DNA of 49,936 nucleotides from Chloroflexota bacterium (lineage in GTDB: Bacteria; Chloroflexota; Limnocylindria; Limnocylindrales; CSP1-4). The position numbers were made by a program, and so were the translations under genes. Positions 2,916 to 33,103 of the stretch are shown here, in pieces (the stretch's first letter is position 1; every line of letters begins with the position of its first letter). Below the pieces are notes generated by a model. The model saw only the letters and a list, made by a program, of their open reading frames with translations. It was not told where the DNA came from and did no database searches. The DNA lies in the NCBI GenBank assembly GCA_039933295.1, contig JBDTOJ010000202.1, forward strand, positions 1-49,936. Direction: 5' to 3'.

Positions 2916-3818
2916 ATGACCCACCCACTCAGCTCAACGGATGCCATCCAGGAGGCCTTTCGGGAGCATGGCTATGTCACCGATCGATCGATCGCGACCG
3001 CCGTCTACCTGTCCCTCGAACTCGGTCGCCCGTTGCTCCTGGAGGGCGAGGCCGGCGTCGGCAAGACCGAGTTGGCCAAGGTCCTGGCGGCGAGTCTCAA
3101 CACCCGCCTGATCCGACTCCAGTGCTATGAGGGACTGGACGTCAACACCGCGGTCTACGAGTGGAACTACCCTCGTCAGATGCTCGAGATCCGCCTCCTC
3201 GAGGCGCGCGGCCAGGCCGAGCATGCCACCGCCCATGACATCTTCGGTACCGAGTTCCTGATCAAGCGGCCGCTGCTCCAGGCGCTCGAGGCCGGTAGTG
3301 ACGGCGAACCGCCGGTCCTGCTGATCGATGAGATCGATCGTGCCGACGAGGAATTCGAGGCCTACCTGCTCGAGATCCTGAGCGACTTCCAGGTCACGGT
3401 GCCCGAGATCGGGACCATCAAGGCCGAGCGTCCGCCACGGGTGATCCTGACCTCGAACCGGACCCGTGAAGTGCACGATGCCCTGAAGCGGCGCTGCCTC
3501 TATCACTGGATTGACTATCCGTCGGCCGCCAAGGAATTTGAGATCGTCCAGTCCCGCGTTCCGGCCGCGCCGGAGACGCTGGCTCGCGCGATCGTGGGCT
3601 TCATTCATCGACTCCGCGAGGCGGACCTGACCAAGGTCCCGGGCATTGCCGAAACACTCGATTGGGCCTCAGCGCTGATGGCGCTCGGTGCCGCCGAGCT
3701 GACGCCCGAAGTGGTCGACGAGACCCTCGGCGTCGTCCTCAAGTACGAGGAGGATATTCGGCAGGTACGGGGCGCCACGGTCAAGTCCTACCTTTCCGAG
3801 GCCGCGGCGGGCCGCTAG
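2916..3818 (+). CDS. coxD: MoxR-family AAA+ ATPase (CoxD)
   Basis: Walker A GEAGVGKT, Walker B LLIDEIDRAD, and LTSNRTRE...ALKRRC. Confidence 0.93.
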   Translation: MTHPLSSTDAIQEAFREHGYVTDRSIATAVYLSLELGRPLLLEGEAGVGKTELAKVLAASLNTRLIRLQCYEGLDVNTAVYEWNYPRQMLEIRLLEARGQAEHATAHDIFGTEFLIKRPLLQALEAGSDGEPPVLLIDEIDRADEEFEAYLLEILSDFQVTVPEIGTIKAERPPRVILTSNRTREVHDALKRRCLYHWIDYPSAAKEFEIVQSRVPAAPETLARAIVGFIHRLREADLTKVPGIAETLDWASALMALGAAELTPEVVDETLGVVLKYEEDIRQVRGATVKSYLSEAAAGR

Positions 3819-5429: not shown

Positions 5430-6542
5430 ATGCGTGATCTGCTCGCGACACTCGAGACTTGGCGGGGGGAAGGAGTCGACGCCGGCCGAGCCGTTGTGGT
5501 CCGGACCTTTGGTTCGGCCCCCCGGCCAGAGGGCGCCGTATTGCTCGTCGCCGATGATGGTCGCCTGATCGGTTCGGTCAGTGGTGGCTGTGTCGAGGGT
5601 GCGGCAGCGGAACGGATTGCCGAGGCGCGCCGCACTGGGCTGGCCACCGTGGTCCGCTACGGCATCAGCGATGAGGACGCCTGGGACGTGGGACTGGCCT
5701 GTGGCGGCACCATCGACGTTCTGATCGAACCAAGCGTCCCGAATGCCGTCGTCGAGGCGGCCGCTTCGTCCATTGGGCCACGCGGCAGCTCCCTTGCCGT
5801 CGTCACGCCGCTGCCGCGGGATGCGCCTCCCGCGACATTCGGACCGCATGAACCAGGGTCGGGGACCGCGCCCGCGAGCCCACTCGTCGTCGGCGCCGGC
5901 GGCGTCCTGCTCGAAGGCTCGAGCGACGACCCGTCCATGGACGCGGCGCTCGTGATCGAGGTAGCCGCGATCCTGGAAGACGGCCGCTCGAGAACAGTGG
6001 ATATTGGCGAGCGGTCGTTCTTCGTGGAGGCGTTTCCGGTTCGGCCCCGGCTGATCGTCGTGGGCGGCGTCGAGGCCGCACGGTCGCTCGTTCGCTACGG
6101 GCGCGAACTCGGCTACGAAACCGTCATCGTCGACGGCCGCGCCGCGTTCGCGACGGCCGAGCGCTTCCCGGACGTGGATCGGATCCTCGTCGCCTGGCCC
6201 GATGAAGCGTTCGAGACCCTCGACGTGGGCGCGAACGACGCCGTCGCCATCCTGTCGCACGATCCCAAGTTCGATGAACCGGCCATCGTCGAGGCCATGC
6301 GGCGAGAATGTCGATACGTCGGTGCGGTGGGCTCGCGCAAGACACAGGCGGACCGCCGGGAGCGCCTCGCTGAGGCGGGGTTGACCCAGGCGCAGATCGG
6401 TAGCCTTCGCGGACCCATCGGCCTGGACCTGGGCGGACGGGAGCCCGCCGAAACCGCGCTCGCGATCATGTCCGAGATCGTCGCCGCCCGGCGCGGCGGT
6501 TCCGGCATCCCGATGCGAGAACGCGCCGCCGGCCGATCGTGA
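5430..6542 (+). CDS. xdhC: XdhC/CoxF family Moco-insertion chaperone
   Basis: GSAPRPEGA, GSVSGGCVEG, GLACGGTI, YVGAVGSR and GPIGLDLGG. Confidence 0.93.
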   Translation: MRDLLATLETWRGEGVDAGRAVVVRTFGSAPRPEGAVLLVADDGRLIGSVSGGCVEGAAAERIAEARRTGLATVVRYGISDEDAWDVGLACGGTIDVLIEPSVPNAVVEAAASSIGPRGSSLAVVTPLPRDAPPATFGPHEPGSGTAPASPLVVGAGGVLLEGSSDDPSMDAALVIEVAAILEDGRSRTVDIGERSFFVEAFPVRPRLIVVGGVEAARSLVRYGRELGYETVIVDGRAAFATAERFPDVDRILVAWPDEAFETLDVGANDAVAILSHDPKFDEPAIVEAMRRECRYVGAVGSRKTQADRRERLAEAGLTQAQIGSLRGPIGLDLGGREPAETALAIMSEIVAARRGGSGIPMRERAAGRS

Positions 6543-7978
6543 CGGGCGAGGGCGCGCAACCGATCCGCGTCGCTGCGATCGTACTCGCGGCCGGTCGTTC
6601 GTCTCGATTCGGACGGGACAAGCTCGCCGCGCGGCTCAACGGTCGTCCAGTCCTCCAGCACGTCCTTGACGCGTTGGCGACCACGGGTATCGACGACCCG
6701 GTCGTGGTTGTCGGAAATGGCGATGGGGACTCCGCGGTCGCAATCGACTGGCGCGCCGCGCGGCGCGTCCGGAACGCGGAACCGGACCTGGGTCTGTCGC
6801 ACTCGCTCCAACTCGGGTGGGCGGCGGTCATGTCGGAATCATCACCGCCGGACGTGATTGTCGTTGCGCTCGGCGATCAACCCACGATCGATCCGGCCAC
6901 GGTCCGTCGACTGCTCGCCGAGCCGCTGGATTCTTGCCGGCCGGTGCTCAGCGCTCGCCACCGCGACGGGTCGCGCAATCCGGTCCGGCTGGAGCCGGCG
7001 GCCGCCGACCTCGTGGCCCAAGCAAGCGGGGACCACGGCCTCGGCCCGCTCATGGACGGACACCCCGATCGCGTCCGCGAACTCACCATCCCGCGCATGA
7101 ACCCGGATGTCGACGTGCCAGCTCATCTTGAGGCGCTGATCGCCGCCAGCTGGGCCGAACGAGTTCGCGCCAACGCGTACCAGGTGGAGCGGGTCCGCGC
7201 GACGCCCGAAGAAGTCGACTTCTACGCGCCAGTAACCCGGATGTTCGTCGTGGATCCGGCTCGGCGCGATGATCCGGTGCTGGACGCCCTTCTCCCGCTG
7301 ACGCGACCCGGCGATACGTGGCTCGATATCGGCGCGGGCGCCGGTCGATACGCGCTGCCGATCGCCGCCGCGACGCGGCAGGTCATCGCCCTGGACCCAT
7401 CGTCCTCGATGCTCGCGGCCCTCCGCGAGGGCGCGGTCTCGGCATCTATCGGGAACGTGCGCGTTCTGGAGGGTCGATGGCCGCCTGATCCAGACACGCG
7501 GGCCGAACTTGGCGACGACCCCGTGGCGGATGTGGCCCTCATTGCCCACGTCGGCTACGACATCGAGGCGATCGTTCCGTTCCTCGACGCGATGGAGGCA
7601 GCGGCACGCTGTCAATGCGTTGCCGTGCTGATGGGGGAGAGCCCGGCCTCCATCGCCACGCCGTTCTGGCCACTGGTTCACGGGCAGGATCGGATCCCGT
7701 TGCCGGCGCTTCCGGAATTCCTCGAGCTGCTCGACGCACGGGGCGTTCAACCTGAGGTCTCGATGATCCCTTCGGAGCGCCGTCGCTGGCCAGACCGCGC
7801 CGAACTCCAGGGTTTCCTCAGACGTCAGTTGTGGACGTCGCCGGGGTCGGATGCAGATCAGCGACTCGAAGCCGCGATCGCGGAACTGACGGAACCCACG
7901 GTGGATGGGGGATTGGAACTCGTCGGCTCTCAGGCCCGGGACGTCGGGATCGTCACCTGGTCGCGACCACGGGTCTAG
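6539..7978 (+). CDS. MocA-like nucleotidyltransferase fused to a class I SAM-dependent methyltransferase
   Basis: N-terminal LAAGRSSRFG...LGDQP...NPDVD; C-terminal WLDIGAGAGRY...ALDPS. One uninterrupted 479-aa ORF. Confidence 0.8.
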   Translation: MTGEGAQPIRVAAIVLAAGRSSRFGRDKLAARLNGRPVLQHVLDALATTGIDDPVVVVGNGDGDSAVAIDWRAARRVRNAEPDLGLSHSLQLGWAAVMSESSPPDVIVVALGDQPTIDPATVRRLLAEPLDSCRPVLSARHRDGSRNPVRLEPAAADLVAQASGDHGLGPLMDGHPDRVRELTIPRMNPDVDVPAHLEALIAASWAERVRANAYQVERVRATPEEVDFYAPVTRMFVVDPARRDDPVLDALLPLTRPGDTWLDIGAGAGRYALPIAAATRQVIALDPSSSMLAALREGAVSASIGNVRVLEGRWPPDPDTRAELGDDPVADVALIAHVGYDIEAIVPFLDAMEAAARCQCVAVLMGESPASIATPFWPLVHGQDRIPLPALPEFLELLDARGVQPEVSMIPSERRRWPDRAELQGFLRRQLWTSPGSDADQRLEAAIAELTEPTVDGGLELVGSQARDVGIVTWSRPRV

Positions 7979-29397: not shown

Positions 29398-30411
29398 TCA
29401 GGAGTCGGAGACGTCTCCGCTCCGGACCATCGCGATCACGTTCTCCAACTTGAGCTTCGTGATCGTCAGGTACTTGGCTAGGTTCGCCCGATCGATGGCG
29501 CCAATGGCTGCCACCACGTCCGGAGCGCGGAGGACGTCCACGAGGTCTTCGACCGCATCCGCAAGGTGCTGTTTCGCGGTAATGAGTGAGTCATCGTTGA
29601 GCGGGGCGGACTCCGCCCGTCGGCCGGTCCACGCAGCGGCCGCGTCCTCGACCATGGCCTCGGACGCCGGCGCGTCCTCGGTCGCTCGCCCGGGAGCCTC
29701 CGCGGTCGACGGTCGCCGACCATCGATCTTGTCGCGGAGCTTCTGAAGGGTCAGCTCACCGCGGGCGACCTGCTGGCCCAATCGCTTGCGCTTCTTGGGA
29801 TCCTCGACCTTCATCAGCTCGTAGGCATGGGACAGCGTGTCTTTGCGCAAGGACACCAGCTCCCGAACGTCGTCCGGGGCACCCGCCAGGCGGAGCCGAT
29901 TCTCGAGGTAGCCCTTGTCCTTGCCCAGCTTCTGGGCGAGCTTCCGGACTGAGTACCCATGTTCGTGAACCATGCGGTCGAACATCGCGGCCTCATCGAG
30001 CGGGGAGAGGTCCTCGCGCTGGAGGTTCTCGATGATCGAGATCTCCAGGGCCGTGTCGTCGTCGATGTCCTCGACGAGCGCGGGGATCGTGTCGAGACCG
30101 GCGGCCTTCGAGGCGCGCCAGCGCCGCTCGCCCGCAATCAGCTGGTACTCGTTGTTGCCGCGCGGCCGGACCAGGATCGGCTGGAGGACCCCATGTTCGC
30201 GGATCGACGCCGATAGTTCTGCGAGTGCCGCAGGATCCATCGCGAGTCGCGGCTGGTCGGCGTTCGGGGAAATCTGGTCAACCGGAATCACGCGCACGCC
30301 CGATGAGTGGCCGATGCGATCCTGCGAGAGCAGGCTCAGGATGGCGGGGGAGAGCTCTCGCTCCTCCGAAAGGCGACGCGCCGCAACGGCGCGGAAATCG
30401 GTTCTAGCCAA
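29398..30411 (-). CDS. parB: ParB/Spo0J chromosome partition protein
   Basis: QPR, LQPILVR, GERRWRA CTP-binding box, ENLQREDL, and HTH. GGAGG ribosome-binding site before TTG 30411. Confidence 0.94.
   Translation of the reverse strand: MARTDFRAVAARRLSEERELSPAILSLLSQDRIGHSSGVRVIPVDQISPNADQPRLAMDPAALAELSASIREHGVLQPILVRPRGNNEYQLIAGERRWRASKAAGLDTIPALVEDIDDDTALEISIIENLQREDLSPLDEAAMFDRMVHEHGYSVRKLAQKLGKDKGYLENRLRLAGAPDDVRELVSLRKDTLSHAYELMKVEDPKKRKRLGQQVARGELTLQKLRDKIDGRRPSTAEAPGRATEDAPASEAMVEDAAAAWTGRRAESAPLNDDSLITAKQHLADAVEDLVDVLRAPDVVAAIGAIDRANLAKYLTITKLKLENVIAMVRSGDVSDS
29839..29854. repeat. 16-bp palindrome copy 1 (GTCTTTGCGCAAGGAC), candidate parS
   Basis: One mismatch from GTCTTTGCGCAAAGAC. 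Lies inside parB. Confidence 0.7.
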
Positions 30412-31168
30412 GGTCAATGACCTCCCGGGCAAGCTCGCGATACGTCCGTGCTGCGTCGGTGTAACCCGCGTAGCTGGTAATCGGGCGGCCCGCAAGCGGT
30501 GCCTCGCCGAGCTTGACGGTGTTCCGGATGATCGATGCGAATACGTGGTGATCGCCGACGGCGCGGAGTTCGTCGAGCATGTCCTTCGCGAGGTTCGTGC
30601 GCCCGTCGTAGAACGTTGGCAGAAGACCCAGGATTTTCAGCTTCCGGTTGAGCTTGAGGCGAATGGTGTTGATGACCTTGACCAGGTTGTTCAGGCCCTT
30701 CATCGCGTAGAACTGGGTCTGGACCGGGATGATCACCCCATCCGCGGCCACGAGCCCGTTGACGGTGAGCAGGCCGAGGTTGGGCGGACAATCGATCAGC
30801 GCATAGTCGTATCGATTCTTAAGCTTGCCCTCGAGAGCGTCACGCAGGATTCCTTCGCGTCCGAGCATCGTGAACAACTCACCCTCGGTAGCCGCGAGAT
30901 CGATGTGCGCCGGCACGACGTCGATGTGCTCGGTCTGCGTGGACACGATCACCTGATCGACCGTGGCGCGTCCGACGAGGACGTCGGCCATGGAGAGTTC
31001 GATGCTGTTGAGGTTGATGCCGAGACCCGCGGTGAGATTCGCCTGCGGATCCATGTCGATGCACAGGACCCGGAAATTCTCCTCCGCCAGCGCGCCCGCC
31101 AGATTGATCGTCGTCGTCGTCTTGCCGACGCCGCCCTTCTGGTTCGCAATTGCAATTACGTTGGTCAC
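30404..31168 (-). CDS. parA: ParA/Soj ATPase
   Basis: ANQKGGVGKTTT, DMDPQAN, IDCPPNLG and IPVQ. GAGGTG ribosome-binding site before GTG 31168. Confidence 0.95.
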   Translation of the reverse strand: MTNVIAIANQKGGVGKTTTTINLAGALAEENFRVLCIDMDPQANLTAGLGINLNSIELSMADVLVGRATVDQVIVSTQTEHIDVVPAHIDLAATEGELFTMLGREGILRDALEGKLKNRYDYALIDCPPNLGLLTVNGLVAADGVIIPVQTQFYAMKGLNNLVKVINTIRLKLNRKLKILGLLPTFYDGRTNLAKDMLDELRAVGDHHVFASIIRNTVKLGEAPLAGRPITSYAGYTDAARTYRELAREVIDLG

Positions 31169-31287
31169 CGGAGAAACACCTCGGATGGGCGACAGGATGG
31201 AGCGCTGGCTGCGCATCGGTCGATCCGCAATGGTGGGGGAGCGACCGTCAAATCCTACTCCAGGCTGCCCGTTCTCTGGCAGGCGAC

Positions 31288-31448: not shown

Positions 31449-31464
31449 GTCCTTGCGCAAAGAC
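31449..31464. repeat. 16-bp palindrome copy 2 (GTCCTTGCGCAAAGAC), candidate parS
   Basis: One mismatch from the perfect palindrome. Lies between parA and pccB. Confidence 0.7.
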
Positions 31465-31518: not shown

Positions 31519-33072
31519 GTGCCATCGAATGCAGAGCGTCTGAACCGACTCGCCGAGATGCGCGCTGAATCCGTGACGGGCGGCGGCCAGGCGCGAATCG
31601 ATCGCCAACACGAGGCCGGAAAGCTGACCGCGCGCGAGCGGATCGATCTCCTGCTCGATGCTGGCTCGTTCGTCGAACTCGACGCGTTCGTGACATCTCG
31701 GTCTGCTGACGCCGGACCGGACCAGCCGCGCTATCTCGGTGATGGCGTCGTGACCGGGCACGGATCCGTTGACGGTCGATTGGTGTTTGTCTTCAGCCAG
31801 GACTTCACCGTATTCGGTGGGTCGCTGTCCGAGGCCTACGCCGAGAAGATCTGCAAAATCATGGATTTGGCGATGAATGTCGGCGCACCGATCATCGGCC
31901 TGAACGATTCGGGTGGGGCCCGGATCCAGGAGGGCGTCGTTTCCCTTGGCGGATATGCCGACATCTTTCTGCGGAACGTCATGGCATCGGGCGTAGTTCC
32001 CCAGATCTCTGTGATCATGGGCCCATGCGCCGGGGGAGCGGTCTATTCGCCGGCGATCACGGACTTCACCGTCATGGTCGATGGAACGAGCTACATGTTC
32101 GTGACCGGACCAAATGTGGTGAAGGCGGTGACACACGAAGAAGTGGACGCGGAGTCGCTCGGCGGTGCCTCGGTCCACACATCGCGGAGTGGCGTCGCCC
32201 ACCTGGCCGTAGCCGATGAGTCGGACGCGCTCGATACGGTGCGGCGGATACTGTCCCACCTCCCACAGAACAATCTGGAGACGACCGCTGCGGTTCCGAC
32301 GACAGACCCGTCGGATCGGATGGACGCCGCGCTCGACGTCGTCGTCCCCGACGATCCGCAGAAGCCGTACGACATGCATGACGTCATCGCCGGCGTCGTG
32401 GATGATCGCGAATTCCTCGAGATCCAGCCAGCATGGGCCCCGAACATCCTGGTCGGGTTTGCGCGACTCGGCGGGAGGAGCATTGGGATTGTTGCCCAGC
32501 AGCCATCGGTTCTCGCCGGGGCGCTCGACATCGATGCGTCGACCAAGGCGGCCCGATTCGTTCGCACCTGTGATTGCTTCAATATCCCGATCGTCTCATT
32601 TGTCGATGTCCCGGGGTTCCTGCCGGGTGTCGCCCAGGAGCACGGTGGAATTATCAAGCACGGGGCCAAGCTGCTGTACGCCTACTGCGAGGCCACCGTC
32701 CCCAAGGTCACGGTCATCACGCGCAAGGCGTATGGCGGCGCCTATGACGTCATGAGCAGCAAACACATCCGCGGCGACATGAACTTCGCGTGGCCCACCG
32801 CGGAGATCGCGGTCATGGGAGCGGAGGGTGCCGTCAACGTCATCTTCAAGGATGCGATTGCTGCTGCGAAGGACCCGGCGGCGGAACGAGTCCGGCTCAT
32901 CGCCGAGTACGAGCTGGAATTCGCCCACCCGTACATCGCCGCCGCCCGCGGTTACGTCGATGATGTCTTTCGGCCGTCAGAGACTCGCCCCCGACTCATT
33001 CGCGCTCTTGACATGCTGGCCAACAAGCGCGCCACGAATCCGCGGAAGAAGCATGGCAACATCCCGCTCTGA
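31519..33072 (+). CDS. pccB: Acyl-CoA (propionyl-CoA) carboxylase carboxyltransferase subunit
   Basis: [42 protein letters not shown] and KKHGNIPL. Alternative GTG start at 31447. Confidence 0.95.
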
Positions 33073-33087
33073 AGTCAGCACGGATCC

Positions 33088-33103
33088 GTCTTTGCGCAAA
33101 GAC
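33088..33103. repeat. 16-bp perfect palindrome copy 3 (GTCTTTGCGCAAAGAC), candidate parS
   Basis: Perfect inverted repeat overlapping the biotin carboxylase start. Confidence 0.7.

Follow-up and report, generated by a model that had tools for sequence, protein, structure and literature searches.

Is the ParB-like protein encoded at positions 29398–30411 (minus strand) of contig JBDTOJ010000202.1 the chromosomal partition protein of its host, altered in its DNA-reading residues, or does it belong to a different system? The window analysed here is the whole stretch of 49,936 nucleotides from this contig, which comes from a Chloroflexota bacterium of the class Limnocylindria (assembly GCA_039933295.1). 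An initial annotation had described a ParB substituted at all four DNA-specificity positions. The protein is not the chromosomal ParB with altered residues but an additional ParB (hereafter ParB2) that has its own ParA (ParA2) and is a paralogue of a canonical ParB (ParB1) encoded elsewhere in the same genome. We consider it rather probable that the window encodes a second, orthogonal ParABS module, composed of parA2, parB2 and three parS2 sites, whose ParB belongs to a distinct family with a lysine at position 173 (Caulobacter numbering, used for the specificity positions throughout) and a 'GKxKGY' motif.

A second ParB beside a canonical ParABS system

The assembly of the window genome (G000; 2.55 Mb in 205 contigs) contains two genes encoding a ParB_N domain, parB2 in the window and parB1 on contig C60, where the gene order is parA1-parB1-gyrB (locus L005, 1–3270). 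ParB1 is a protein of 286 aa with an LGRGL motif (in GLGRGLAALI), a match to ParB_C (E = 3.8e-09) and a helix-turn-helix (HTH) region, GRARSTVANTLRLLDLHSSVQAAVADGIITEGH, that gives R/T/D/G at the four specificity positions, thus R173 and G201. A perfect parS, TGTTTCACGTGAAACA, is located directly upstream of parA1 (C60:11083–11098), and the only other near-perfect parS in the assembly (C173:2475) has 1 mismatch. ParB2 differs from ParB1 by K173 and S201, where ParB1 has R173 and G201, by another N-terminal peptide in place of LGRGLAALI, and by a helical C-terminus in place of ParB_C.

In ParB2 (337 aa), a conserved N-terminal peptide is followed by a CTPase domain, an HTH and a C-terminal domain that is entirely helical. 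The protein matches the Pfam families ParB_N (PF02195; E = 6.9e-36) and HTH_ParB (PF17762; E = 4.3e-17). Its CTP motifs QPR (residues 53–55, Box I), GERRWRA (94–100, the Box II arginine patch, codons at 30112–30132 on the minus strand) and ENLQRE (128–133, Box III) are invariant in 32 orthologues, in agreement with the initial annotation, which had described the CTPase motifs as intact. In Foldseek searches, the AlphaFold 2 (AF2) model of ParB2 (mean predicted local distance difference test score, pLDDT, of 73) showed structural similarity with the Caulobacter ParB-parS complex 6t1f (target-normalised template-modelling score, TM, of 0.83), with Noc 7nfu (TM 0.70) and with the KorB structures 8qa8 and 8qa9. 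By its ParB_N and Box I–III motifs, its HTH and the fold of its N-terminal plus HTH (N+HTH) region, ParB2 is a member of the ParB/Spo0J CTPase-clamp superfamily. The two ends of the protein are those of a different type: ParB_C (PF23552) gave no match to ParB2, not even when the last 67 residues were searched at E ≤ 1, and the C-terminus is predicted by AF2 as a helical hairpin; no LG(R/K)GL ParA-binding motif was found in ParB2, whose N-terminus, MARTDFRAVAARRLSEERELSPAILSLLS, follows the pattern MARTDFRAxAARRLSEE...LSLL, with a helix at residues 5–15 predicted by AF2 at low confidence; in Noc, an amphipathic helix at the N-terminus targets the protein to the membrane. The metagenomic orthologues are 328–352 aa long, nearly all of them 333–342 aa, so that the TTG at 30411 is the correct start of parB2. 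This start overlaps the stop of parA2 by 8 nt (30404–30411), which suggests translational coupling. The parA2 gene itself (30404–31216, minus strand) encodes a Walker-type ParA ATPase of 270 aa from the ATG at 31216 (Pfam AAA_31, E = 1.6e-63, and CbiA); the orthologue in L039 is called as 254 aa.

HMMER aligned the HTH segment of ParB2, GKDKGYLENRLRLAGAPDDVRELVSLRKDTLSH, without gaps to the structures of Geobacillus Noc and Myxococcus ParB (GKERSTVANALRLLALPTDVKGMVADGSLSMGH), placing K166, R172, G177 and S194 of ParB2 at Caulobacter positions 173, 179, 184 and 201 (the codons of the HTH and recognition segment, G163–H195, lie at 29827–29925 on the minus strand). The register and the K/R/G/S residues of the initial annotation are therefore correct. 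Its statement that all four positions are substituted is literally true with respect to the RTAG of Caulobacter ParB, but it is overstated, because positions 179 and 184 vary freely in genuine parS-binding ParBs. We aligned 150 representatives of clusters at 50% identity, among which the 72 representatives of canonical ParB clusters have, in nearly all cases, R at 173 and G at 201, and vary at 179 (T, A, S, L, M, I, Y) and 184 (A, K, Q, N, G, R, S). In a one-hybrid scan of 160,000 variants, R173 was invariable among parS binders, position 201 tolerated G, C, S or T, position 179 accepted 17 different residues and position 184 was unrestricted (Jalal et al., 2020; PMC7383237). ParB2, with K166 and S194, does not have the canonical signature (R173, with G or another small residue at 201), and it is R173K, and to a lesser degree G201S, that carries information. 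From these comparisons, only K173 among the four residues appears clearly incompatible with parS binding, and it is likely that ParB2 does not bind parS. In ParB2 orthologues across the class, K173, R179 and S201 are constant; position 184 is D in most of them, G in the window genome and a few others, and S or A elsewhere.

Palindromic sites at the parAB2 locus

The 16-bp palindrome GTCYTTGCGCAARGAC occurs three times within 3.3 kb of the window, versus 0.03 copies expected, and these three copies at the parAB2 locus are the only exact ones in the 2.55-Mb assembly. Site 1 (GTCTTTGCGCAAGGAC, 29839–29854) is located inside parB2, at codons V186–T192 (VSLRKDT), two residues before S194, so that the internal copy does encode residues next to position 201, as had been noted from the sequence. 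Site 2 (GTCCTTGCGCAAAGAC, 31449–31464) is situated between the divergent genes parA2 and pccB, with the ATG of parA2 about 235 bp downstream of it. Site 3 (GTCTTTGCGCAAAGAC, 33088–33103) is a perfect palindrome 16 nt past the pccB stop; should the biotin-carboxylase gene start with the ATG at 33054, this site would be part of its first codons. Neither a canonical parS nor a Noc-binding site (NBS) was found in the 50-kb window within 3 mismatches. It is very likely that ParB2 binds these palindromes. The three copies can each be read as SLRKD, namely VSLRKDT in ParB2, MSLRKDG in a long upstream extension of the pccB open reading frame (ORF) and PSLRKDD where the biotin-carboxylase ORF begins, because one DNA word is read in the same frame, and not by protein homology.

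The internal site is written in codons that are otherwise unusual for the gene. In 39 orthologues, the codon TTG is used for leucine in 94% of cases at the site versus 3% elsewhere in the gene, AAA for lysine in 90% versus 5%, GTG for valine in 96% versus 19%, and CGC for arginine in 97% versus 46%. The internal site is thus held by otherwise rare synonymous codons, and selection acts on the DNA sequence itself. In loci L009–L031 and in the window, the internal site has, almost without exception, one mismatched wobble pair, being TCC...AAA or TCT...AAG and not TCC...AAG or TCT...AAA. In the upstream copy of the same genus this asymmetry usually has the opposite orientation, and other genera have a perfect TCT...AAA.

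Both the internal copy and the copy upstream of parA2 are kept in 47 of 51 loci from two families of the class (f1 and f3), with variable flanks and with the upstream copy about 1.45–1.7 kb upstream of the internal site; the exceptions are L027, L048 and L049, where no upstream copy reached the thresholds used, and L061, which lacks the internal one. When 151 genomes of the class were scanned, 2–4 sites of the GTCYTTGCGCAARGAC type were found clustered within 3–8 kb of parAB2, versus 0–2 per genome for the reversed-pattern control (except for G526, with 5). Third and fourth sites are present at a spacing of 1.5–1.8 kb in G526, G488, G499, G322 and G482, and G338 has four sites spaced by 1.6–2.0 kb.

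Class-wide retention, chromosomal position and ancestry

We looked for ParB2 in 401 genomes of the phylum, 46 of them from the class Limnocylindria, with an orthologue threshold of E ≤ 1e-80. All 46 class genomes encode both a ParB2 orthologue and a second ParB, and 18 of the 19 genomes that were searched with ParB1 itself contain a ParB1 orthologue; outside the class, the best match to ParB2 in this sample was never better than 1e-46. In the same genome pairs, the conservation of ParB2 equals or slightly exceeds that of ParB1, with percentages of identity of, for example, 82 and 80, 72 and 69, 59 and 54, and 52 and 49 for ParB2 and ParB1, respectively. ParB2 is retained even in the streamlined family f2, with genomes of 1.0–1.4 Mb. 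It is a vertically inherited core gene and not a relic.

In five near-complete genomes, parS1 is located 22–55 kb from dnaA, with parB1 within about 2 kb of parS1 in the four genomes where parB1 was located. The distance between parB2 and dnaA on the same contig is 0.76–1.78 Mb, corresponding to 0.34–0.42 of the genome length (taking the shorter arc for G291). A single contig carries dnaA, parS1 and the genes for ParB1 and ParB2 in G291, G416, G074 and G062, and dnaA, parS1 and parB2 in G400; therefore, contamination does not explain the presence of two systems. As parB2 shares a contig with dnaA in all five genomes, the module was not found to reside on a plasmid or secondary replicon. The cumulative GC skew rises monotonically across the window, indicating that it contains neither a replication origin nor a terminus, and no second origin or initiator was seen. 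The genes around the module are conserved, since the orthologous locus on a 2.57-Mb contig of a relative has the same neighbours, being flanked by pccB and pccA at one end and by genes for a UbiA-family protein and an acyltransferase at the other. A scan for sigma-70 promoters between 29200 and 33300 gave no matches, a result that is uninformative for this phylum.

A maximum likelihood tree of 124 N+HTH regions grouped the canonical R173/G201 ParBs, including ParB1 and the Noc-type sequence P0266, in one clade (98% in the Shimodaira–Hasegawa-like approximate likelihood ratio test, SH-aLRT), and left all K173 proteins, ParB2 among them, outside this clade. The KRxS residues were therefore inherited from a different ParB family and did not evolve from RTAG in place. 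A recent duplication of ParB1 as the origin of ParB2, which we also considered, is ruled out by the same tree. The K173 proteins found outside Limnocylindria share a GKxKGY...RLRL...RPDTLxH motif and have in common with ParB2 the helical C-terminus and an N-terminal peptide of the MAR.D.+.A.R type. Their genes are located next to genes for coupling proteins, relaxases, IS66 elements, recombinases, resolvases and DNA methyltransferases and to phage-like genes. A search of the plasmid database PLSDB gave no close homologue of ParB2: among the matches listed, identity does not exceed 45%, and the best ones extend over the N-terminal half only. Most likely, this is a plasmid-derived ParABS module that became fixed in the chromosome.

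The K173 relatives carry palindromes of their own in or beside parAB, GTCTGGACGTCCAGAC in L068, L069 and L075, GTTTTTGCGCAAAAAC in L070, GTATTTACGTAAATAC in L073 and GTACTCACGTGAGTAC in L074. All palindromes of the K173 family have the form GT-N5-CG-N5-AC, whereas the outer positions of canonical parS are TG. Perfect TGTCTGGACGTCCAGACA sites are present at 6554 and 6778 in L068, at 4553 and 6184 in L069 and at 4660 in L075. In L068 and L075, one of them occupies the same codons as the internal site of ParB2, where VSGRPD[TS] is encoded by GTG TCT GGA CGT CCA GAC A, and further copies in this set of three loci are found where the linker is encoded or upstream of parA. The central CG of the internal palindrome is within a conserved arginine codon, and palindromy thus couples the residues that flank this codon, which are L..K (TTG CGC AAA) in the class and G..P (GGA CGT CCA) in the relatives. 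No residue-to-base code is apparent from the five natural K173 ParB-site pairs; a simple relation between residue 201 and base 6 was tried across the family and rejected, S201 occurring with G6 in two site types and with A6 in L073.

Two plasmids have palindromes at their par genes as well. Plasmid 2 of Deinococcus deserti (L072) contains two perfect copies of GTCTTCACGTGAAGAC upstream of parA, at 258 and 288, and pBPHY02 of Paraburkholderia phymatum (L071) has two copies of TGTTCTAATTAGAACA downstream of parB, at 3664 and 3710. These look like the own parS sites of the two plasmids.

Second centromere or regulator

The observations gathered above are consistent with the following mechanism. 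ParB2 would load as a CTP-dependent clamp at GTCYTTGCGCAARGAC, and not at canonical parS, from sites inside its own gene, upstream of parA2 and after pccB. The resulting partition complex would work with the cognate ParA2, and would mark and position a chromosomal locus at about 35–40% of the genome from oriC; ParB2 would probably also autoregulate its operon. Insulation from ParABS1 could be ensured at the level of the DNA-reading residues, of the N-terminal peptide that would contact ParA and of the dimerisation domain. Whether the module acts as a second centromere, and not only as a regulator, is in our estimation, based on the gene and site arrangement, an evenly balanced question. Somewhat less probable, but still a serious possibility, is the full form of this proposal, in which the class would keep two orthogonal centromeres on one chromosome, with ParABS2, about 70–85% along one replichore, positioning or segregating the origin-distal part, and with the internal parS2 and the corresponding protein segment changing together.

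Several points weigh against the reading as a second, orthogonal ParABS module. Sites 2 and 3 flank pccB and may have a role in the regulation of the propionyl-CoA carboxylase operon, and a second centromere on one replicon is without an established cellular function, in organisms that are uncultured. Families f2 and f4 keep ParB2 without the GTCYTTGCGCAARGAC site. In f2 the internal copy has been lost, the segment reads VAERSDT and there is no synonymous conservation (L032–L038, L079 and L080); upstream of parA2, these loci carry a diverged element, cGTCCGTGyGCGnrGACA, in a longer inverted repeat (CACACGGAC...GTCCGTGTG). A scan of the f4 loci for parS2 gave no convincing site. The AF2 confidence is moderate in the C-terminal part of ParB2 (pLDDT of about 70). 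As to the plasmid origin, the K173 relatives are encoded on short metagenomic contigs whose replicon type was deduced from neighbouring genes only. ParA2 is, by sequence identity, only marginally closer to the ParAs of these relatives (48–49% for those beside the K173 ParBs of L068 and L069) than to ParA1 of the same genome (45%). Separately, the parB2 of one f4 locus (L078) contains a perfect GC-rich palindrome at 5842, GTCCGGCGCGCCGGAC, encoded by LSGAPD around position 184 and absent in L077; it probably occurs by chance in a high-GC genome.

Some other explanations can be largely set aside with the data on ParABS1, on the tree and on conservation. The absence of canonical parS from the window and the class-wide occurrence of ParB2 among housekeeping genes could have meant that the class replaced the universal centromere, with ParB2 as its sole chromosomal ParB and the new palindrome as its main parS, as the initial annotation implied. 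This scenario is refuted and retains almost no plausibility, as ParA1, ParB1 and parS are present on contig C60 of the window genome, a second ParB occurs in 46 of 46 class genomes (with the ParB1 orthologue in 18 of 19), parS adjoins parB1 at 22–55 kb from dnaA, and ParB1 (or parS1 in G400) shares contigs with parB2. The class has not replaced the universal parS, and the canonical system is retained throughout the sampled genomes. A nucleoid-occlusion factor similar to Noc, another ParB paralogue with changed specificity residues, is brought to mind by the best NCBIfam match of ParB2, which is the Noc model (188.9 bits, versus a cut-off of 315). This function is already inconsistent with the data and just as implausible: the residues are K/R/x/S and not Q/K/K/R, the window has no NBS, the sites are clustered at one locus and not dispersed, a ParA of its own accompanies the protein, and the tree places ParB2 outside the canonical clade, in which the Noc-type P0266 is nested. 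It is scarcely more credible that an integrated plasmid or a fused chromid left the module behind as an inert relic, with partition genes that no longer have a function. Although its nearest relatives are on contigs with mobile-element genes, the genes are intact in every class genome, including the streamlined ones of 1.0–1.4 Mb, their conservation is at least that of ParB1, the CTP motifs are invariant, and the synonymous sites of the internal palindrome are under selection.

The main alternative for the function of ParB2 is that of a CTP-dependent transcriptional regulator similar to KorB, acting mainly on parAB2 and pccB/pccA and not as a segregation centromere. KorB is itself a ParB-family clamp (hence the matches to 8qa8 and 8qa9), its Pfam model (PF08535) gave a weak match to ParB2, sites 2 and 3 bracket pccB with further sites along the operon in relatives, and the synteny with the pcc genes is kept on the 2.57-Mb contig. 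This alternative appears nevertheless unlikely, given that the Pfam score (21.9 bits) is below the cut-off (22.3), that no KorA-like gene was seen in the operon, that the cognate ParA2 is always adjacent and conserved, that K173 relatives with analogous palindromes have unrelated neighbours, and that the clustering of sites around parAB is the classical arrangement of a centromere. As binding of ParB2 to the palindromes is deduced and two of the three copies flank pccB, these copies could also be operators of an unrelated regulator, for instance of propionate metabolism, with ParB2 binding some other site. We regard this as distinctly improbable, because all three exact copies belong to the parAB2 locus, one of them is held by rare codons in the HTH-coding part of parB2, and relatives without nearby pcc genes carry analogous palindromes, two of them at the same parB codons.

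A second ParABS module fixed in the chromosome, the reading that we favour, can be compared with several known systems. Like the canonical ParB/Spo0J proteins of Caulobacter and Bacillus subtilis (parS TGTTNCACGTGAAACA), ParB2 has the CTPase and HTH folds, Boxes I–III and a neighbouring ParA, and the position of site 1 within parB2 is paralleled by a parS copy within spo0J of B. subtilis. Unlike them, it has K173 and S201, neither LG(R/K)GL nor ParB_C, another site, a location that is not origin-proximal and a separate ParB1 in the same genome. Like Noc, ParB2 is a paralogue kept beside ParB with changed specificity residues and a different 16-bp palindrome. However, Noc originated from a local duplication inside the canonical clade, lacks a ParA, carries Q/K/K/R and has dispersed sites, whereas ParB2 lies outside this clade, has its own ParA2, carries K/R/x/S and has 2–4 clustered sites. 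A second orthogonal ParABS with its own parS in one cell is known from chromosome 2 of Vibrio cholerae (ParAB2/parS2), and naturally fused chromosomes can carry two ParABS systems. In V. cholerae, a second replication origin is surrounded by the parS2 sites, and the system occurs at the species level, whereas the arrangement in Limnocylindria is class-wide and comes with no visible second origin or initiator. KorB of RK2 resembles ParB2 as a ParB-family CTP clamp with a palindromic operator and by structure, and differs from it by its site and, as discussed above, by the subthreshold Pfam score, the missing KorA partner and the adjacent cognate ParA of ParB2.

[quoted passage not shown] The ParB2 module likewise consists of a ParA and HTH-ParB pair with its own 16-bp palindrome, with a central CG (core TGCGCA). 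Its sites cluster at the par operon, and the cell has a canonical ParABS as well. The module differs from Bsr by its occurrence in Chloroflexota and by its fixation, throughout a class, in the main chromosome, where its housekeeping neighbourhood is conserved and lies at 0.34–0.42 genome lengths from dnaA. The K173 'GKxKGY' motif and the helical C-terminus appear to set ParB2 apart as a different ParB family. The diversity of ParB specificities was already known from Bsr, V. cholerae ParB2 and KorB. Thus, the third specificity class proposed in the initial annotation stands in that ParB2 has neither the parS nor the NBS signature and goes with a different palindrome, but ParB2 is not a third class beside ParB and Noc, many other specificities having been described. 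Our literature searches turned up no account of a second ParABS system in Chloroflexota.

Should the module function as a second centromere, Limnocylindria would offer a natural example of two ParABS systems, insulated from each other, at very different positions on one replicon, which would bear on the organisation of chromosomal regions away from the origin and on the way in which acquired partition modules become fixed. The K173 family, with at least five natural ParB-site pairs that all conform to GT-N5-CG-N5-AC, would extend the specificity code of ParB and Noc beyond parS and NBS, and its ParB-site pairs are candidate orthogonal ParB/parS tags for the labelling of DNA loci.

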